DNA from: Spirochaetia bacterium
GTDB lineage: Bacteria > Spirochaetota > Spirochaetia > CADAEX01
Reading direction: 5' to 3'
Assembly (NCBI GenBank): GCA_963662795.1
Contig: OY759746.1
Span: 3,712,001-3,776,000, forward strand
Length of the DNA stretch: 64,000 nucleotides
How positions within the stretch are numbered: position 1 is the first letter of the stretch; each line of letters begins with the position of its first letter. Positions 20,271 to 29,023 of this stretch are shown here, piece by piece. Under the pieces are notes generated by a model. It had not been told where the DNA came from and ran no database searches. It saw only the letters and a list, made by a program, of their open reading frames with translations. Position numbers and translations under genes: made by a program.

Positions 20271-20900
20271 ATGAAAAAGGAATACAGGGATCTGATAGAG
20301 CTTGGTAAATATCTTGTTAAATACCGCTACGCCAGCGGATCTGCCGGCAATATTTCACTCAAAATGGATAACGGTTATGTGCTTGCATCCCCGACCAATT
20401 CACATCTGGGATCACTTTCTAAAAAGGATTTATCCCTTCTGGATGACAAAGGGAACCACATTTCCGGGCTAAAGCCTACCAAGGAAATTGAACTGCACCT
20501 TTCAATTTACAGAAGCAGAAAAGAGACCAATGCGGTGATCCATCTTCATTCAACATATCTTACAGCGTTTTCATGTCTGGAAGGACTTGACCGGTCAAGT
20601 GTGCTGAAGCCCATAACGCCCTATGTTTTAATGAAAACCGGAGATATCCCGCTTATTCCTTATTTCAAGCCGGGTTCAATAGAAATTGCGCGGAAGATAG
20701 AATCCCTTGCAGCCGGCCACTCATCATTTCTCCTTGCAAACCACGGAATAGTTGTCAGCGGCAGGACAACAACTGAGGCATGCTATAATTTCGAGGAAAT
20801 TGAAGAAACTGCGAAGCTGCACTTTCTGCTTAAGAATGAGAAGATAAACTATCTTACAGATGATGATGTATCAGCTCTGCGCAGGAGGGCTTTCAAATGA
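20271..20900 (+). CDS. otnC: class II aldolase family, 3-oxo-tetronate 4-phosphate decarboxylase-like
   Basis: GSAGNIS, SPTNS.LG, KPTKE..LH, VIHLHSTY, PITPY..M, LLANHG, EE.EETAKL; coupled to otnK. Confidence 0.8.
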   Translation: MKKEYRDLIELGKYLVKYRYASGSAGNISLKMDNGYVLASPTNSHLGSLSKKDLSLLDDKGNHISGLKPTKEIELHLSIYRSRKETNAVIHLHSTYLTAFSCLEGLDRSSVLKPITPYVLMKTGDIPLIPYFKPGSIEIARKIESLAAGHSSFLLANHGIVVSGRTTTEACYNFEEIEETAKLHFLLKNEKINYLTDDDVSALRRRAFK

Positions 20901-22153
20901 GTGATCCGCTTTTCGGCTGTGTCGCAGATGATTTTACCGGAGCAAGTGATGCTGCTTCCTTTTTCCTTGCGGGAGGTCTTAAAACCCTTTTGCTTAACGG
21001 CATACCTTCCGGATCCGGAGACCGTCCTGACGGTATCCAGGCGATCGTTATTGCCCTGAAATCCCGGACACAGGAAAGCTCAATTGCTGTCAGAGATTCA
21101 CTTGAGGCTTTTGCGATGCTGAAAAAGATTGGATGCAGACAGCTTTATTTCAAGTACTGCTCAACCTTTGACTCAACACCGGAAGGTAATATCGGACCTG
21201 TCATAGACGCAGTTCTGGATAAATACAAACTGCCCTATACAATAATCTGCCCCGCCCTGCCGGTAAATAAACGTACTGTAAAAAACGGACATCTTTTTGT
21301 AAACGGAGTTCCGCTGCATAAAAGCCCGATGAAAGACCATCCGCTTACCCCCATGTGGGATTCCGACCTTAATAACCTTATCGCGGCCCAGGGTAAATAC
21401 AGGAGCTTTAATCTTGACTACAGACTTCTTGAAAAAAACAGGGTCGAAATATTTGAGAAGATATTCAATTTCAGATCTTCAATAGGCGGCAGACCTTTTT
21501 ATATTATTACAGATTATTTTAATGAAAACCACGCTGTAATTATCGCAGACCTTTTCAGAAACCATCCGTTTTTGACAGGAGGTTCAGGTCTCCCTTTCGC
21601 CCTTGCCAGGCAGAATGCGGCACAGGATAAAGCTGCTTTAAAAAACAATTTAAGCAGAGGGACTGAAGGAAGCACTCTCCTTCTTGCAGGAAGCTGCTCA
21701 ACAGCAACAAGAGGGCAGATTGCAGACTTTAAGAAAAATAAAGGTGTTTCAATTGAACTTGATCTTCCGCGTCTCTTAAAAGGGGAAATCGACAGCAGCT
21801 TTTATTCAGATTTCCTCAAGGTCAATAAAGGGCGCGACGTTCTTATACACACCCCCTCAGAAATCAGAAGCAGCGGTACCCCTGTTTCAGAATTACTTGA
21901 AAATACTATAGCCGGGATAGCATATAACGCTGTCGAAAATGGAATCAGAAAAATTGTTACAGCAGGGGGAGAAACATCCGGAGCTGTTGCCGGGAGACTT
22001 GGTTTTAATTCATATTTAATCGCAGGGAGTGTCGCGCCCGGGGTACCGGTGCTGATCCCTGTTGAAAAAGATGTTATGAGGATTATTTACAAATCAGGCA
22101 ATTTCGGCCAGGAGGATTTTTTCACAAGGGCAATTGAAGCTGTCGGAAAATAG
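20897..22153 (+). CDS. otnK: four-carbon acid sugar kinase (DUF1537), 3-oxo-tetronate kinase-like
   Basis: VADDFTGASD, ALKSRT, FKYCSTFDST.EGNIGP, MKDHPLTPM.DS, GSCS.AT, AGGETSGAV, KSGNFG. Confidence 0.9.
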   Translation: MSDPLFGCVADDFTGASDAASFFLAGGLKTLLLNGIPSGSGDRPDGIQAIVIALKSRTQESSIAVRDSLEAFAMLKKIGCRQLYFKYCSTFDSTPEGNIGPVIDAVLDKYKLPYTIICPALPVNKRTVKNGHLFVNGVPLHKSPMKDHPLTPMWDSDLNNLIAAQGKYRSFNLDYRLLEKNRVEIFEKIFNFRSSIGGRPFYIITDYFNENHAVIIADLFRNHPFLTGGSGLPFALARQNAAQDKAALKNNLSRGTEGSTLLLAGSCSTATRGQIADFKKNKGVSIELDLPRLLKGEIDSSFYSDFLKVNKGRDVLIHTPSEIRSSGTPVSELLENTIAGIAYNAVENGIRKIVTAGGETSGAVAGRLGFNSYLIAGSVAPGVPVLIPVEKDVMRIIYKSGNFGQEDFFTRAIEAVGK

Positions 22154-22160
22154 TTCAGGG

Positions 22161-23570
22161 TTATTCAAGCAAAAAGGATTCAACAAGGTTCAGTTCACCC
22201 TCTTTTATATCTGCCTTTCCGCGATTGTCCCTGTAAATAATCTGTCCCTTGCTGTAATAATCAATACGTATTGTATGTTCACCCGGGGGGAGGGTAATAT
22301 CAGCTACCCTTGCATAAGCAGGGAAATAGGGAGAAATGCGCAAATCAGCATTCTCTGTCGCATCAACGGCAATGTCGGCAGTAACCCCCAATAATAAGTC
22401 CAGGAAAGGGTTCCCGCCTGTAATTGATTCGCTGGCCTGTTTTTTACCTGATTCTTTCAGCATATTTTTAACAACAGTCCGGATAACTGTTTTACCAATA
22501 ACCAGAGGCTGTTTGATCAGAAAAATCTCCTGTGATATTTTTTCCATATTTTCCAGCAGGTCAAGGCTTTCACTGATTTTATCATCGATTACAATATCAA
22601 CCCTGTCCACTTCGCTGCCCATCATTTTCATTTTCGGATACTGGAATTTGAAATGAAATCCCCCTTTTAATCCAGGCATATAAATATTATTGAAACCTAC
22701 AACGCTCTTTACATATTCCTCATCCTGGCTGGTTGCGACTATCCATACTACATCCGGGGTTGTCTGAAGATAAAAAGTTTCAGCCAGTTTTCTTGGAGAA
22801 TTACCTGAAAAAGCTATAACTGAGAGATGGGCCTTTTCCCTGTCCATACTCAGAAGAGGGATTTCAGGCTTTTTAAACGGATAAAGCTGACTCTGGAGTT
22901 TAAAAGCTTTTTCTATCTCTTCACTTTCGATCCTCGCACTGTCAAACTTCCCTTCCATACGGTATAGAAGAAGACCCAGATAACGCGCCAGGGCATCATT
23001 GTGAAACCTGTTTTTACGGGGAACTATCTCACCTTCAGGATTTTCTGAAGTATTGTGGATTTCAATCAATTCACGGTACTTGTCTTCAAGGATGTTGAGT
23101 TTTATATGAACTCTCCTGATTTCTACAAGTGCGCTGTCCATTTCGTTAAGAGCGATATAGTTTAGGGCTTTAAAAATGTTCAGATAAATATCTTCATAAT
23201 CTTCACCACTGTAATCAAGGGCATTATCATTTAATACACCTGAGACAAGAGCTTTAGAAACACTTTTAGTATAAAGTTCCTCAATCGCGTCTTCTGCTGC
23301 TGACAGGGCAATATTGCTCTTTTCATATTCGCCGCTGAAATGGTAAAGCATACCTGTATCCAGAAAATACAGCACACGGTCTTTTTCTTTATAGCTTATC
23401 TCTTTTTGTGATTCTATGATTTTTCCGGCCGCTGCAAAATTCCTTCGCTTAAAGAATTCCGCAGCTTCCTGATACTGACTCTGGCTCGTTCTTGTGCTGG
23501 CGCATGATGCAGAGAAAATAATAATAACTAAAATTAAAAAATAATATTTTTTCTGCACCTGCATTTCCAT
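22161..23570 (-). CDS. COG3014-type TPR lipoprotein
   Basis: Lipobox SASC; KDRVLYFLDTGML.H..G.Y..SN, Y.GEDYE.IY, ENADLR; downstream of LpoB-like gene. Confidence 0.8.
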   Translation of the reverse strand: MEMQVQKKYYFLILVIIIFSASCASTRTSQSQYQEAAEFFKRRNFAAAGKIIESQKEISYKEKDRVLYFLDTGMLYHFSGEYEKSNIALSAAEDAIEELYTKSVSKALVSGVLNDNALDYSGEDYEDIYLNIFKALNYIALNEMDSALVEIRRVHIKLNILEDKYRELIEIHNTSENPEGEIVPRKNRFHNDALARYLGLLLYRMEGKFDSARIESEEIEKAFKLQSQLYPFKKPEIPLLSMDREKAHLSVIAFSGNSPRKLAETFYLQTTPDVVWIVATSQDEEYVKSVVGFNNIYMPGLKGGFHFKFQYPKMKMMGSEVDRVDIVIDDKISESLDLLENMEKISQEIFLIKQPLVIGKTVIRTVVKNMLKESGKKQASESITGGNPFLDLLLGVTADIAVDATENADLRISPYFPAYARVADITLPPGEHTIRIDYYSKGQIIYRDNRGKADIKEGELNLVESFLLE

Positions 23571-23584
23571 AGTTCCAGAATTTA

Positions 23585-24202
23585 TTACCAACCGGCTTTT
23601 GATTTCTTGATAAACTTTTTAACCTCTTTGGAACCAATCCAGACTTTTTCTGTGCTCTCAAGATTTACAAGTTCCAGATCTACCTGATAAAGAACTACTT
23701 TTTTCCCTTCAATCGCGTCTGTTACGGAGTTTATCTGTCCCTGCATCATGAAATCCGCACCTGTCTCTGCCGCAAGAGCCTTGGCTGTTTCAGGAGTTGC
23801 AAATATCTGCTGTTCTTTTTTCTCTGCCCTGACATCTGCCCTCTCGTCTTTGGCCGCAACAAACCTTACCCTGCCGCTGTTGATAAGTTCACGCTCAATA
23901 TCCTTTGTAAAAACTTCAGTCGCAATATGCTCTGAACTTTTATTGCGTACAGCCCCTACTATTACAACAGGATTCTGTCCGTTTTTACCGACAAAATTCA
24001 TAATCCATGGCCGTGAAAGTGAATCCTTTACCATCTCTTCCGCTACAAGCCTTGAATCTGTATCATTCCATCTTCCGCTTAAATCAATAACTTCATCAGA
24101 TTCAGTTCTTTCAACTTTGACAGAAGCACATGAAGCAAGCAGTAAAACTGCTAAAATTCCGGTAAAAAATACTTTTCCTGATATAGCTGATTTTATTCTC
24201 AT
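23585..24202 (-). CDS. LpoB-like (COG3417) lipoprotein
   Basis: Lipobox LASC; DLSGRWNDTDSRLVAEEM, VRNKSSEHI, GADFMMQG, YQVDLEL. Confidence 0.85.
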   Translation of the reverse strand: MRIKSAISGKVFFTGILAVLLLASCASVKVERTESDEVIDLSGRWNDTDSRLVAEEMVKDSLSRPWIMNFVGKNGQNPVVIVGAVRNKSSEHIATEVFTKDIERELINSGRVRFVAAKDERADVRAEKKEQQIFATPETAKALAAETGADFMMQGQINSVTDAIEGKKVVLYQVDLELVNLESTEKVWIGSKEVKKFIKKSKAGW

Positions 24203-24286: not shown

Positions 24287-25537
24287 TTAGTCAAGAAGAC
24301 AGCATATTACCTTGTCTATCCTCTTGATGCGGTTACTTAAATCCTTTCTCTCCCCCTCACTTAATCCCTGAGGGGAGGAGTTTTTAATCTTATCAAGAAG
24401 TATTTCAACGCTGTCAACCGCTTCTTTCAGGGAAAGATCATCATCCATCCCTCTTTTGAATACAGGTTCCAAATCTGCAATCAGTAATTCTGTTTTTTTA
24501 TTTCCCGGCAGAGTTTTTAGAACGTTATCAGGGACAGCAAGAAGTTCTGCAATTTTCCCCTTAAGGCTTTTCAGACGGAGGGAAGCATTGTTCATATTTC
24601 CAATGCTGAAATCAAGTTTTTTCCTGTAATGCTTTGTTGCGGTAAGGAAAAATCTGAGTTCGATTGGGAAGTACCCGGATTCATAAACACCTTCAGGATA
24701 GAGGATATTGCCTCTGCTTTTTGACATGGACCTGCCGTCTATCAGGAGATGCTCACCATGGAGATAATAGTTTGCATACTCCTTTCCTGTATAGGATTCC
24801 ATCACAGCAATGTTGTAATCATGGTGCCGGTAAATATTATCAATACCGCCGCAATTAATATCAACCTGCTCCCCCAGATGTTTTACAATCATGGCAGGGT
24901 CCTGAACGTTCCAGGAAGGCCTTCCCCTTCCTATAGAAGTATCCCAGAAATGAACATGTTCACCCCTGTCCGCATGCCAAAGGATGAAATCGCCCTTATT
25001 CCACCGGTTGCCGTTATATGTGTCCCTGCGGAAACGGACCTTCTTTTCAGGCCACTTGTTCATATCAAGACCGAAAAGTTTCCCAAATCCGGAAAAAGTA
25101 AGCGGATCAAAGAACACATCCTTACCGTAGTAATAGGCATGTCCCTTTTGTATAAGTGTTTGAATTATCTCAACCGCTTCAGAAACACTGCCTGAAGAAG
25201 TGGGTATTACATCGGGAAGCTTTATCCTTAAATCATTGGATTCACTGTAAAAATGATCTGCCGCAGCTGAAGTTATTTCTTCAATTTTCAGCTCCCGGGT
25301 AAGAGATTCCTCGATTGTCTTATCCTCAAGATCTGTAAAATTTATTATCCTCTTTACATCATAACCGAGGTATTCAAGATAACGGATCAGAATATCTTCA
25401 TAGAGAAATGTCCTGTAATTGCCTATATGAGGTCTTCTGTATATTGAAGGGCCGCAGGTAAAAACCTTTACCTTTCCCGATTCCCGGGATTTGAATAATT
25501 CACTCTGCCCGCTCATGCTGTTTTTAAGTTTTAACAA
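24287..25537 (-). CDS. cysteinyl-tRNA synthetase-like class I ligase (divergent paralog)
   Basis: TTG start after AGAAGG (LKLKNSMS ~ LKIFNTL); FTCGPSIY..PHIGNYR, NFTDLEDK, DFILW, GRPSW, SMSKS.GN; altered Zn ligands; ends at DALR-like helices. Confidence 0.85.
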   Translation of the reverse strand: MLKLKNSMSGQSELFKSRESGKVKVFTCGPSIYRRPHIGNYRTFLYEDILIRYLEYLGYDVKRIINFTDLEDKTIEESLTRELKIEEITSAAADHFYSESNDLRIKLPDVIPTSSGSVSEAVEIIQTLIQKGHAYYYGKDVFFDPLTFSGFGKLFGLDMNKWPEKKVRFRRDTYNGNRWNKGDFILWHADRGEHVHFWDTSIGRGRPSWNVQDPAMIVKHLGEQVDINCGGIDNIYRHHDYNIAVMESYTGKEYANYYLHGEHLLIDGRSMSKSRGNILYPEGVYESGYFPIELRFFLTATKHYRKKLDFSIGNMNNASLRLKSLKGKIAELLAVPDNVLKTLPGNKKTELLIADLEPVFKRGMDDDLSLKEAVDSVEILLDKIKNSSPQGLSEGERKDLSNRIKRIDKVICCLLD

Positions 25538-25628
25538 TGTATACCTTCTGCAAGTAAAAAAGTTTCTATAAAAAGATACCAAAGATAAGCTCACCCGGCA
25601 ACGGATATTGATGCAGTTTTAAGGCAGA

Positions 25629-25657
25629 TTGACAATTGCACCTAACATGATTACTTT
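25629..25657 (+). promoter_or_regulatory. sigma70-like promoter, probably leaderless transcript of the methyltransferase
   Basis: TTGACA(25629)-17 nt-TACTTT(25652); ATG 25665 lies 7 nt downstream. Confidence 0.55.
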
Positions 25658-25664
25658 ACATATC

Positions 25665-26267
25665 ATGCGGAATGAAGAAAAAATAAAAAACCACTACTAT
25701 CCCCGGCTTGAAAATTTCAGGGAAACACATAAAATTCTGGATTGGGAAAGCAGGGAGGCCCAGTTTGCAAGATTCGAGGTGCTTACGAGGCATGTATCTC
25801 TTGACGGAAAATCTGTACTTGATGCAGGGTGCGGCTGCGGCGATCTTTTTTCAATGCTTAAAGAAAGAGGGATTATAGTATCCTACACAGGGGTTGATAT
25901 CCTTCCGGCAATGATTGAAAAAGCACAGTCTCTTCATGACGACGGGCAATTCCTCTGCGGGGATCTCTTTGGTGAAGAACCTGTATGCACGGAAAAATTT
26001 GACGTGGTTTTTACATCGGGAATATTCAATCTCAATCTCGGTAATAATGCCGCATTCTTTGACGCGGCTCTTCCTGTTCTGCACAGGCTTGCAAGGGAAA
26101 CGCTTGTCATAAACCTGCTTGATGAGGCAAGTCCGGACAGGGATAATAATTACTTTTATTTTAATCCTGAAGATACAAAAGCAAAAATGGAATCTATCGG
26201 CAGACAGGTTACAATAGTCAAAGATTACCTTTTAAACGATTTTACCCTTATAGGTATCCTTCAGTAG
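25665..26267 (+). CDS. class I SAM-dependent methyltransferase
   Basis: WESREAQFARF, VLDAGCGCGDL, YTGVDI, FDVVFTSGIFN. Confidence 0.9.
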   Translation: MRNEEKIKNHYYPRLENFRETHKILDWESREAQFARFEVLTRHVSLDGKSVLDAGCGCGDLFSMLKERGIIVSYTGVDILPAMIEKAQSLHDDGQFLCGDLFGEEPVCTEKFDVVFTSGIFNLNLGNNAAFFDAALPVLHRLARETLVINLLDEASPDRDNNYFYFNPEDTKAKMESIGRQVTIVKDYLLNDFTLIGILQ

Positions 26268-26305: not shown

Positions 26306-26950
26306 TCAAAGAGACCTGCATATCATTACTGCAAAATGCATACTGAAATTTATTTTGTCCGCCCCTTTTATCAGCAGTCTCTGTTCTTTCAGCAATTCCA
26401 TATTGTTATTTTTAAGCAGATTATTAATATAAAGCGGAGAATGCCTGAATATCGGTACGCCCCAGTCTGTATCTTCCCTCAAGAAATCTGCAGGCAGCCC
26501 GTGGGGAGCAAAGGAAAAAGCAATGATTCCTCCGCTTCTGACTACCCTTTTGATCTCTGAAAAGATTTGAGTTAAATCATCAACAAAATGAAGTACACCG
26601 CAGCAGACAGCATGATCAAAAAATCCTTTCCGGTACGGTATTTTTTCCCTTGCAATATCGAACAGGCTGAGTTCTTCAGTAAAAGATTTCGCTTTACAGG
26701 CATCAAGCATATCCTGTGAGTAATCCAGACCATAGACTTTAAGCCCTGTTTCCGCAAAATGGATGGAAGCCAAACCGGTTCCGATACCGATATCCAGAAG
26801 CTTTTCGCCGGGATTTATATATTCATAACTCATTCCAAATATAACTTCATGACCATAGCTGTTATATGCTCTGACTTCTTTGTCATAATTATCTGCGAAT
26901 TCCCTGTACTGCAGCTCTTTTTGTTTCTGACTCACTATAACTTCTTCCAT
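26306..26950 (-). CDS. class I SAM-dependent methyltransferase
   Basis: LLDIGIGTGL, YGLDYSQDML, FDHAVCCGVLHF, RVVRSGG. Confidence 0.9.
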   Translation of the reverse strand: MEEVIVSQKQKELQYREFADNYDKEVRAYNSYGHEVIFGMSYEYINPGEKLLDIGIGTGLASIHFAETGLKVYGLDYSQDMLDACKAKSFTEELSLFDIAREKIPYRKGFFDHAVCCGVLHFVDDLTQIFSEIKRVVRSGGIIAFSFAPHGLPADFLREDTDWGVPIFRHSPLYINNLLKNNNMELLKEQRLLIKGADKINFSMHFAVMICRSL

Positions 26951-27132: not shown

Positions 27133-27891
27133 ATGAGCACCGATTACCAGATACCGATAATGATTAAAACAATGAAAGTAATTGATATTATTTCAGAAAA
27201 CAAGGATGGACTGACTTTCTCGGAAATTCTCCGTCATCTGAAATATCCAAAGACAACACTGTTCAGAATACTACAGACACTGGAATCACAGAACTGGATT
27301 TCAAAAAAATCTGATCATTATACTCTTGGATACATGGTCATCCATTATGGCCTTGCAGGTTTATCAGGAAGAGACATCAGGAGAATATCTCTTCCTTACC
27401 TTGAAGAACTGCGTGAACTTACGACAGAGACTACTCATCTTGCAGTTCTTTCAGGAAGAAAGAGCATGATAATTGAGATTATAGACAGTCAAAAACATAT
27501 AAAACCCTCGTCCCCGATGGGATCTCTCATAGATCTTTACTGTTCTGCACATGGAAAAGTCTTTTTAGCATATAAAATAAAGGAAGATCTGGAATCCTTC
27601 TATAAAAATACAGAACTGGTCAAAAGGACATCACATACTATTACGGATATACCGTCACTTATGGAAGAAACAAGAAAAATCCTGAAAAACGGCTATGCTG
27701 TGGATGATATGGAATATTATGATGATGTTCGGTGCCTGGCCGCACCGGTCTGGGGGAAAGACAACGAAGTTGTGGGAGCAGTGGGAATAACTGCTACCAC
27801 CAGGGACTTTACCAGGGATCTCATTCCGGTCATGGCAAAGCATGTAATATCTGCATCCCGTAATATTTCAAGGGAAATGGGCAGTATCTGA
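27133..27891 (+). CDS. IclR family (KdgR-like) transcriptional regulator
   Basis: HTH PKTTLFRILQTL; LYCSAHGKVFLA, GYAVDD.E....RCLAAP. Confidence 0.93.
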   Translation: MSTDYQIPIMIKTMKVIDIISENKDGLTFSEILRHLKYPKTTLFRILQTLESQNWISKKSDHYTLGYMVIHYGLAGLSGRDIRRISLPYLEELRELTTETTHLAVLSGRKSMIIEIIDSQKHIKPSSPMGSLIDLYCSAHGKVFLAYKIKEDLESFYKNTELVKRTSHTITDIPSLMEETRKILKNGYAVDDMEYYDDVRCLAAPVWGKDNEVVGAVGITATTRDFTRDLIPVMAKHVISASRNISREMGSI

Positions 27892-27912
27892 CTTACTCGG
27901 ATTAATTTTTAA

Positions 27913-27980
27913 TTGACAGCCCGGAGAAACTGAATTATCCTGAATTAATATATTATGAAACCTATTTTCAAATAGGAAAC
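27913..27980 (+). promoter_or_regulatory. promoter and KdgR-like operator of the TRAP-kduID operon
   Basis: TTGACA(27913)-17 nt-TATCCT(27936); ATGAAACCTATTTTCAAAT(27955) resembles the enterobacterial KdgR box TGAAAC-n-TTTCA. Confidence 0.6.
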
Positions 27981-27991
27981 CAGGAGGTTTT

Positions 27992-29023
27992 ATGAAAAAA
28001 TTATTTTCACTATCCCTGATACTTGTGTTTTCTTCAGTATTACTCTTTGCGGGCGGAAGCAAGGAACCTGCAGCTGAGAAAATGGAAAAAAAAGAAGAAT
28101 CAAAAATCTATGTCTTCAAATATTCCAATTCACAGTCTGATAAAGCCCCGCGCAGCAAATCCATGCTTTTCTTCAAGGATACACTGGAAAAAGCAAGCAA
28201 TGGCCGGATACAGGTTGAATTGTATTTTAACGGTGTACTTGGAACCGAGGCAGAGGTTTTTGAAATGGTACAGCTGGGGACAGTACAGGGATGCCGCGGC
28301 GGGCTGTTTGAAAGGGCAAATAAAAAATTCCTGCTATATACTCTGCCTTTCATGTTTGAAAACGCGGAACAGGTTGTTAAGGTCATGAGAAGCGATTTTG
28401 GACAGAAGATCAATAAAGGCGCACTCGCCAATGGAGTTTATATTCCGGCAACAGGTGTCGCAGGCGGGATGAGAAATATAACAAACAGCGCGCGTCCGAT
28501 AAAAACCCCAGCTGACCTTGCAGGACTCAAGATGAGAACTCCCCCAATTGAATCCACTCTCCTGACTTTTCAGGCACTGGGAGCAAATCCACAACAGGTA
28601 GCATATACAGAAACCTATATGGCTCTTAAAAGCGGTGTAGTAGACGGACAGGAAAATCCATATTCGAATGCAGTTGATATGAAGTTTTATGAAGCACAGA
28701 AATATCTGTCTGTAGTTAACTGGCAGGTACATCCGGATCCTTTTTATGTCAATCCTGACTGGTACAACAGCCTTCCCGCAGACCTGAAAGCTGTTTTCAA
28801 TTCAGTTGCCGAAGCTACCATGCAGTACAGCGATACAATCTGGCTTAATTCTGAAGAAGGTTATTTTAACATTCTAAAGGAAAAACTGGCAGTTAATACT
28901 ATAACTCCCGAGGCAAGGGCACAGTTTGTAAACAAAGTACAAAGTGTATGGAAATATTATACTGATAAAAATTATTTCACACAGGCAGAAATTGACGAAG
29001 CTCTTGCTATTGCTTCTAAATAA
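27992..29023 (+). CDS. dctP: TRAP transporter substrate-binding protein (DctP family)
   Basis: Spirochaete-type signal LFAGGSKE; GLKMRTP, E.Y.ALKSGVVDGQENP, KFYEAQKY. Confidence 0.93.
   Translation: MKKLFSLSLILVFSSVLLFAGGSKEPAAEKMEKKEESKIYVFKYSNSQSDKAPRSKSMLFFKDTLEKASNGRIQVELYFNGVLGTEAEVFEMVQLGTVQGCRGGLFERANKKFLLYTLPFMFENAEQVVKVMRSDFGQKINKGALANGVYIPATGVAGGMRNITNSARPIKTPADLAGLKMRTPPIESTLLTFQALGANPQQVAYTETYMALKSGVVDGQENPYSNAVDMKFYEAQKYLSVVNWQVHPDPFYVNPDWYNSLPADLKAVFNSVAEATMQYSDTIWLNSEEGYFNILKEKLAVNTITPEARAQFVNKVQSVWKYYTDKNYFTQAEIDEALAIASK

Follow-up and report, generated by a model that had tools for sequence, protein, structure and literature searches.

A conserved, apparently undescribed paralog of cysteinyl-tRNA synthetase with rewired zinc-site motifs in a Spirochaetia genome

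Among the relatives of cysteinyl-tRNA synthetase (CysRS) for which functions have been described are MshC, CysRS*, and the Zur-regulated CysS2, and in the accounts given of them cysteine is the amino acid in all three cases. MshC, an actinobacterial CysRS paralog of approximately 410 amino acids without the anticodon domain, is established as a tRNA-independent enzyme, the L-cysteine:GlcN-Ins ligase of mycothiol synthesis (PMC2922099; PMC9437257). CysRS* of Desulfobacterales is the product of a second cysS gene, lacks the anticodon-binding domain, shows changes in the CP1 domain, including a PTVS motif, and is encoded downstream of selC*-selB* (PMC5389517). CysS2 of Cupriavidus metallidurans is a second CysRS copy encoded in a Zur-controlled cobW1/folE_IB2 operon and expressed only under zinc starvation (PMC10882993). 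A working analogy, although from a different parent family (GluRS), is offered by GluQRS (YadB), a truncated GluRS and thus a class I paralog without the anticodon domain, which acts on tRNA at a new site by glutamylating the queuosine of tRNA-Asp (PMC9437257). The subject of this study is a CysRS-like gene encoded on the reverse strand of a 64,000-nucleotide stretch of DNA from a Spirochaetia bacterium (assembly GCA_963662795.1, contig OY759746.1, positions 3,712,001 to 3,776,000; the whole stretch is referred to below as the window). The gene belongs to a cross-domain CysRS-derived clade, apparently undescribed and uncharacterised, which is a fourth lineage of CysRS relatives beside MshC, CysRS*, and CysS2. 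Its product is probably not a housekeeping CysRS, and its amino-acid pocket has probably changed.

The protein matches PF01406 (tRNA-synt_1e) with 237 bits and the cysS equivalog profile TIGR00435 with 275.9 bits, the latter below the curated cut-off of 340. Only positions 1-393 of the 466 in TIGR00435 are matched, the last approximately 70, which correspond to the C-terminal anticodon domain, being missing, and in the alignment to E. coli cysS the C-terminal domain residues R423, D436, R439, and D451 have no counterpart. An earlier reading of the same DNA, made by a model from the sequence alone and called here the original prediction, was thus right that the protein ends at ...RIDKVICCLLD without an anticodon module. 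An AlphaFold2 model (51-sequence alignment; pLDDT 91.3, pTM 0.91) has a helical bundle at the C-terminal end, and in Foldseek searches with this model CysRS structures rank first (8qhp, TM-score 0.88; E. coli CysRS, 0.79-0.84), with the MshC structures 3c8z and 8hfm lower (0.75-0.79). The score against the MshC profile TIGR03447 is 152.9 bits vs a cut-off of 485.1. Elsewhere in the same genome, a single 3.93-Mb contig, lies the separate canonical cysS for which the original prediction had proposed to look (494 bits vs the cut-off of 340; profile positions 1-465; motifs WHIEC and HHTNE), so that the window gene is not the only cysS of its genome. The paralog shares with canonical CysRS (TIGR00435, PF01406; structures 8qhp and 1li5/1u0b) the fold (TM-score 0.79-0.88), the HIGH and KMSKS signatures, the equivalents of Cys28, Thr68, Trp205, and His234, the SC fold, and the helical bundle, but differs from it in its sub-cut-off score, a switched pocket, a new and basic CP1 domain, the absent alpha/beta anticodon domain, and its accessory position beside a true cysS.

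The sole long open reading frame (ORF) at the site spans 24287..25594 (-). Public gene calls start it at ATG 25516 (409 amino acids), as does the 409-amino-acid representative of the 100%-identical cluster, and residues are numbered here from this ATG. Since homologue N-termini of the form xLxLxNxM lie upstream of ATG 25516 and a Shine-Dalgarno-like AGAAGG is found 7 nt 5' of TTG 25537, the true start is probably this TTG, as had been proposed originally. The features of the gene are as follows:

24287..25537, (-): coding sequence of the CysRS-derived paralog, 416 amino acids plus stop from TTG 25537; stop codon at 24287-24289
25454-25456, (-): Cys21, equivalent to the E. coli Zn ligand Cys28, kept (alignments; 199 of 199 members)
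25418-25429, (-): HIGN, corresponding to the ATP-binding class I signature HIGH, from the translation (H30 in 199 of 199)
25331-25336, (-): Thr61-Asp62, equivalent to E. coli Thr68-Asp69, kept (alignments; 199 of 199)
24986-25054, (-): subfamily-specific basic CP1 motif WPEKKVRFRRDTYNGNRWNKGDF, from conservation in 199 members
24899-24913, (-): WNVQD in place of canonical WHIEC; Zn ligand Cys209 replaced by Asp206, second-shell His206 by Asn and Glu208 by Gln
24845-24862, (-): DINCGG, coordinates checked by script
24812-24829, (-): RHHDYN in place of canonical PHHENE; His234 kept as H231, Glu238 replaced by Asn235, new invariant Arg230 and Tyr234
24716-24730, (-): SMSKS, the class I KMSKS loop (M264 in 197, S265 in 196, and K266 in 199 of 199)
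24290-24604, (-): C-terminal helical bundle up to the protein end (helices 305-404 in the AlphaFold2 model); canonical alpha/beta anticodon-binding domain absent

Residue equivalences were taken from two alignments, one made with HMMER to E. coli CysRS (1li5) and the other with MAFFT on 67 subfamily, 16 short, and 112 full-length sequences, E. coli cysS among them. The residues kept in the paralog are, in E. coli numbering, Cys28 (C21), Thr68 (T61), Asp69, Trp205 (W202), His234 (H231), His235, and those of the HIGH and KMSKS motifs; HIGN, SMSKS, the Cys28 equivalent, and the tryptophan, which the original prediction had listed as retained, were all found at script-checked coordinates. We take Thr61-Asp62 to be the anchor of the alpha-amino group. 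The Zn tetrad Cys28/Cys209/His234/Glu238 is incomplete: Cys28 and His234 are each kept in 199 of 199 members, whereas Cys209 is Asp in 199 of 199 and Glu238 is Asn in 195, and both replacements, already proposed from the window sequence, are borne out by the two alignments. The switches in the Zn region comprise His206 to N203, Glu208 to Q205, Cys209 to D206, and Ser210 to Pro, and those around the double histidine Pro233 to R230, Asn237 to Y234, Glu238 to N235, and Glu236 to Asp, so that a fixed set, N203, Q205, D206, R230, D233, Y234, and N235, now takes the place of two Zn ligands out of four and of five neighbours. Further switches are Tyr26 to Phe, Thr31 to Ser, Tyr152 to Phe, and Lys185 to His. 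The "new Cys" of DINCGG to which attention had been drawn is not special: the canonical CysRS of the same genome reads DIHCGG, and many canonical representatives have Cys at this position.

These substitutions are not due to chance, since 199 distinct homologues show the same changes with little or no variation. Invariant in all 199 are C21, H30, T61, D62, W202, N203, D206, G223, G224, D226, R230, H231, H232, D233, and Y234, and near-invariant are Q205 (197), N235 (195), and C222 (196). The CP1 consensus, W-P-(K-K-K)-x-R-F-(K/R)-(K/R)-D-T-Y-x-G-x-R-W-N-x-G-D-F, is as fixed as the pocket motifs, with D165, Y167, G169, N173, G175, and F177 in 199/199 members, P156, T166, and D176 in 198 each, F162 and W172 in 197 each, and W155 in 194. 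A word-indexed search gave a list of 120 clusters, 51-100% identical and for the most part full-length proteins of approximately 400-420 amino acids (range 300-456), and an exhaustive search of 50%-identity representatives gave 13,037 CysRS-like proteins at E <= 0.001. Among the 136 representatives listed (at least 380 amino acids), WN[VI]QD together with HHDY[NT] occurs only in five (P0122, P0123, P0124, P0127, and P0128), HHDYN is also found in a sixth (P0129), which has a gap where the first motif would stand, and nearly all the others have WH.EC and HH.NE. The ESM Atlas yielded generic short-CysRS clusters only. In a tree of 84 rows (IQ-TREE quick search, LG+G4, midpoint root), a branch with an SH-aLRT support of 100 separates 37 of 37 subfamily rows from the rest, and the nearest rows across this branch are short CysRS forms. 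The survey of WNVQD/HHDY proteins suggested in the original prediction has thus delimited a bounded, conserved clade, and the phylogeny suggested there has shown it to be monophyletic among CysRS, MshC, which was to be included, having been left out of the tree. In the literature covered, which did not extend to subscription journals and supplements, no description of a WNxQD/RHHDYN CysRS subfamily was found. One further protein, P0212 (405 amino acids), reads WNVQC ... HHENT, retaining the Cys209 equivalent with part of the subfamily substitutions; it clusters with the short CysRS forms in the tree and may be an evolutionary intermediate.

To judge from this conservation, the rebuilt pocket is under strict purifying selection, which favours a changed amino-acid or metal specificity over decay. 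The class I adenylate-forming machinery for an alpha-amino acid is kept (HIGN, SMSKS, and the equivalents of Thr68/Asp69 and Trp205), and since the apparatus for adenylation and the anchor of the alpha-amine are both preserved, the paralog would be expected to activate an alpha-amino acid. The side-chain site no longer has one thiolate and one carboxylate ligand, nor the His and Glu of the second shell, and has acquired Arg and Tyr, both invariant; what results may be a metal site that has been retuned (Cys/Asp/His) or a polar site without metal. The original prediction held that the enzyme activates a different or modified amino acid or acylates a non-tRNA acceptor, and the first part is supported, in the form of a changed amino-acid or metal specificity, by the conserved rewired pocket and the separate cysS. 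A pseudo-synthetase, non-catalytic or partly catalytic, with a regulatory, sensing, or chaperone role, might bind ATP, an amino acid, or RNA without transfer. Aminoacyl-tRNA synthetase paralogs with regulatory roles exist (HisZ), and none of the context methods described below gave a clue to the substrate; however, HIGH, KMSKS, and the amino-acid anchor are invariant in the 199 members, which would be costly without catalysis, and we regard this explanation as very improbable.

The distribution of the clade is rare and patchy. It was surveyed from 123 pattern matches with one genome per species, of which 100 encode relatives (44-82% identical to the window protein) and 80 loci were kept. By record titles, the bacterial carriers are Spirochaetia/Spirochaetales, Leptospira-labelled metagenome-assembled genomes, Syntrophobacteraceae and other Thermodesulfobacteriota, Acidobacteriota, and Nitrospirota (Thermodesulfovibrionales), and the archaeal carriers Methanomethylovorans, Methanococcoides, other Methanosarcinales, and Thermoplasmatota; the titles point mostly to anaerobic lineages and anoxic habitats. 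Spirochaete and methanogen members are about 45-50% identical, and the clade has moved between the bacterial and archaeal domains. Among 151 sampled Spirochaetota genomes, cysS is above the cut-off in 149 and a second cysS-like match (E <= 1e-40) is present in six, the source genome included; the two of these second matches seen as rows (G000 and G257) are both of the paralog type. In 121 sampled Methanosarcinales genomes, full-length CysRS is found in 33, short CysRS in 26 (397-423 bits over approximately positions 1-400), three of which also have a full-length copy, and sub-cut-off paralog-type matches in 10. The latter were assigned by verified motifs in six genomes (G003, G004, G009, G029, G109, and G117) and by score only in four (G006, G077, G100, and G120, the last two partial). 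Full-length CysRS accompanies the paralog in three of these 10 carriers, and in the other seven the paralog is the only CysRS-like gene.

Another route to Cys-tRNA is present in all 20 carriers tested: canonical cysS in 14 of 14 outside Methanosarcinales (G000, G001, G002, G005, and G275-G284) and SepRS above the cut-off in six of six tested paralog-only Methanosarcinales genomes (G003, G004, G006, G077, G100, and G117). Such a second route fits an accessory function and would also be compatible with redundancy. SepRS and SepCysS were not found in the bacterial carriers tested (G000, G001, and G002), and a class I "SepRS analogue" feeding SepCysS was rejected for this reason. Three side observations were made among these genomes. 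The Thermoplasmatota carrier has a SepRS-like gene (G005:C20:7022-8488) of 200 bits, well below the cut-off of 380, which brings to mind the SepRS-like proteins that PMC8762117 discusses for Thermoplasmata. In a genome with both full-length and short CysRS, a CysRS-like match (G083:C103:5379-6755; 335.8 bits) is interrupted by three TGA and one TAG codons and may be a broken copy. Syntrophobacteraceae-type carriers have a third CysRS-like gene (G002:C2:3777586-3778974, G278:C1:5026267-5027652, G279:C1:1277476-1278864, G284:C1:5082651-5084039, and G282:C67:3131-4489), in an ORF of about 770-810 amino acids matching the whole cysS profile with 222-238 bits (362 in G282), which looks like a fused, divergent CysRS.

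The neighbourhood survey proposed in the original prediction was carried out on ORFs called and clustered in the 80 related loci and the window, the family being found in 75 loci and the window (76 loci). No neighbour cluster spans phyla, except for scattered hybrid histidine kinases, a promiscuous multi-domain cluster, and a cross-phylum biosynthetic neighbourhood did not emerge. The commonest neighbours (CNNM/CorC, OsmC-hydrolase, and HPF-CSD) occur in Syntrophobacteraceae-type loci only, and the Pfam names of recurrent neighbours are mutually unrelated (methyltransferase, LpoB, isochorismatase, DUF72, glyoxalase, nitrilase, MORN, LplA-like, FMN reductase, GlnE, YchF, and histidine kinases). 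Conservation of the neighbourhood is lineage-specific synteny only, and no neighbour points to a substrate. An Rfam scan of 19 loci and the window found tRNA only, with no riboswitch or T-box, and no fused forms of 717-2045 amino acids were found at E <= 1e-60, which is weak evidence.

Distribution and context both bear on the possibility that the paralog is a true CysRS isoenzyme for zinc scarcity, for example in sulfidic anoxic habitats, in which Cys21, Asp206, and His231 would hold Zn more tightly or hold another metal. The precedent is cysS2, which like the paralog is an additional copy of CysRS and may likewise be tied to the supply of metal; the comparison is by description, not by sequence (PMC10882993). 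The paralog retains Trp205 and two of the four ligands, the carriers come mostly from anaerobic lineages and anoxic habitats, seven of the 10 Methanosarcinales carriers have no other CysRS-like gene, and the protein is basic like short CysRS. On the other hand, all second-shell residues and the CP1 motif changed and then froze, and a metal swap alone needs neither. The score lies below the cysS cut-off, whereas the short forms lie above it; three of the 10 Methanosarcinales carriers also have full-length CysRS, and six of the seven paralog-only ones, all that were tested, have SepRS. A Zur-type context (cobW, folE2, Zn uptake) was not seen among the annotated neighbour clusters, and zinc-starvation operon genes (cobW, folE_IB, queD) were not among approximately 35 annotated clusters, some neighbours being unannotated. 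We therefore consider a zinc-sparing CysRS unlikely.

The nature of the acceptor is a separate matter. Short CysRS of Methanosarcinales (approximately 405-428 amino acids; e.g., loci L084-L091) likewise have no C-terminal anticodon domain and are the only CysRS-like match in 23 of 26 genomes. They resemble the paralog in length, in the missing domain, and in basic charge, and provide its nearest tree rows, but mostly have WH.EC and PHHEN and score above the cut-off; in the 16 short rows, H206 is conserved in 88%, C209 in 100%, and P233 and N237 in 81% each, with the Glu238 equivalent in half only. The step from a missing anticodon domain to tRNA independence, taken in the original prediction, is accordingly not supported, since equally short proteins above the cysS cut-off are the sole CysRS-like match in 23 Methanosarcinales genomes. 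Over the shared region, the median net charge, a crude proxy for RNA binding, is +4 (pI 8.6) in the 67 subfamily rows, +8.5 in the 16 short rows, and -8 (pI 5.9) in the 112 full-length rows, and in the CP domain it is +5, +3, and -1, respectively. CP1 of CysRS reads the acceptor stem's first base pair (PMC5389517). This role, together with the basic charge of the subfamily and its largest shift in the CP domain, favours an anionic acceptor, and the basic surface, as predicted from composition, would be no less suited to an anionic acceptor, RNA for example, than to a small molecule.

CysRS* is a described case of a related enzyme that acts on a special tRNA, and under a scenario of this kind (Mukai et al. 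2017) the paralog would charge a selC*-type tRNA-Cys(UCA), delivered by SelB*, so that UGA is read as Cys. The absent anticodon domain and the changed CP1 are common to both, and many carriers are Syntrophobacteraceae or other Thermodesulfobacteriota. However, SelB was not found in the source genome, the best match reaching 193 bits vs 242 on a 405-amino-acid ORF (taken as EF-Tu, not annotated), and neither was a tRNA-Sec-like gene, all 14 weak RF01852 matches being ordinary tRNAs. The genome encodes 46 ordinary tRNAs, among them a single tRNA-Cys, with anticodon GCA. A SelB-like neighbour was not seen among the annotated clusters of the 76 loci, in which most singleton neighbours are unannotated, and PTVS occurs in the CP1 of none of the 199 members. 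CysRS* is moreover described as cysteine-specific, whereas the pocket of the paralog is rebuilt, a distinction drawn from the description only (PMC5389517). With no SelB, no tRNA-Sec-like gene, and no PTVS, this scenario was rejected and is given next to no weight.

A stronger competitor, although we hold it to be doubtful, is the reading of the original prediction, namely an MshC-like, tRNA-independent ligase of an amino acid and a small molecule, in which a metabolite bound in the remodelled CP1 pocket (such as an amino sugar, a nucleotide, or a phosphorylated compound) would attack the adenylate through its amine or hydroxyl. Its length and domain set are those of MshC, the MshC structures match the model as given above, the CP1 motif is rich in Trp, Tyr, Asp, Asn, and Arg, the distribution is accessory and patchy, and the genome has no extra tRNA. 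The paralog is, however, not a member of the MshC family, as its TIGR03447 score demonstrates, and its clade is found in anaerobic bacteria and archaea. MshC keeps the cysteine-binding Zn site, whereas the Cys209 equivalent of the paralog is Asp. No glycosyltransferase, deacetylase, carrier protein, or pathway gene recurs beside the paralog across phyla, fused forms were not found, and the basic charge resembles that of short, presumably tRNA-charging CysRS.

We hypothesize that the paralog descends from an anticodon-domain-less CysRS and has become a neofunctionalised accessory enzyme, with an altered amino-acid pocket and an RNA acceptor, and we assign to this full statement a probability of roughly 0.35. 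The side chain read by the rebuilt pocket would not be the cysteine thiolate, or not this thiolate alone, and would be read either through a metal bound by Cys21, Asp206, and His231 or without metal, and the activated amino acid would be passed to a conserved anionic acceptor on the basic surface of CP1 and the SC fold. The most likely acceptor would be an ordinary tRNA or RNA, at its 3' end or at some other position, and the reaction, by analogy, a non-canonical aminoacylation of the GluQRS or CysRS* kind, not housekeeping Cys-tRNA synthesis. As the acceptor, RNA or tRNA is slightly favoured over a phosphorylated or sugar-type small molecule, both being tentative. A more specific proposal, a cross-domain family that has replaced or retuned the thiolate-reading zinc site and activates a different, possibly non-proteinogenic, amino acid onto ordinary tRNA or RNA in anaerobic bacteria and methylotrophic methanogens, is rather speculative.

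Several points weigh against an RNA aminoacylation with a new amino acid, beginning with the crudeness of net charge as a guide. The amino acid and the metal state are inferred. Thiolate-binding Zn sites with ligands of the Cys/Asp/His type exist, and such a site in the paralog could still hold Zn and a thiolate, which keeps cysteine possible as the substrate. In MshC, the same architecture works without tRNA. No extra or odd tRNA was found among the 46 of the source genome, and no dedicated tRNA partner is visible there. The CP1 motif is unlike that of canonical and short CysRS, so that recognition of the acceptor end cannot be the same, and a sugar or nucleotide would likewise fit its composition of Trp, Tyr, Asp, Asn, and Arg.

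This lineage has rebuilt precisely the metal site that gives CysRS its specificity. If the proposed reaction is correct, it would be a natural, dedicated non-canonical aminoacylation of RNA, either a new RNA modification or programmed mischarging, without a known counterpart among CysRS relatives. If its amino acid and acceptor were identified, the gain would be a new way of aminoacylating or modifying RNA or else a metabolite pathway new to anaerobes, and in addition a natural example of a recoded synthetase amino-acid pocket, useful for genetic-code engineering. Clade genes at present carry the label "cysteinyl-tRNA synthetase" or that of a "class I tRNA ligase family protein", and because the paralog is the only CysRS-like gene in several methanogen genomes, metabolic reconstructions may wrongly credit these organisms with direct Cys-tRNA synthesis.

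The immediate surroundings of the gene showed several lineage-level associations. In four Methanosarcinaceae loci, the strand opposite to the paralog carries a tRNA-Arg(GCG) gene 0.2-1 kb downstream of it, probably as family-level synteny, at the following positions:

L069, 9999-10072: tRNA-Arg(GCG)
L072, 10250-10323: tRNA-Arg(GCG)
L074, 2572-2645: tRNA-Arg(GCG)
L082, 5457-5530: tRNA-Arg(GCG)

In the window, two class I S-adenosylmethionine-dependent methyltransferase genes adjoin the paralog (25629-26267 (+) and 26306-26950 (-)), and a methyltransferase homologue, not mapped to either of these ORFs, occupies the same divergent position in five spirochaete loci. Downstream and codirectional (22161-24202 (-)) are genes for an LpoB-like lipoprotein (205 amino acids) and an overlapping 476-amino-acid protein without a Pfam match; the pair is also found 3' of the paralog in locus L004 and upstream of it in locus L005, and a sigma-70-like site at 24266-24238 suggests that it may have its own promoter. 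Farther out lie genes for a class II aldolase and a four-carbon-acid-sugar-kinase-type protein (SBD_N/NBD_C) at 20271-22153 (+) and for an IclR regulator and a TRAP DctP binding protein at 27133-29023 (+), and both of these flanks consist of ordinary acid-sugar catabolism genes.

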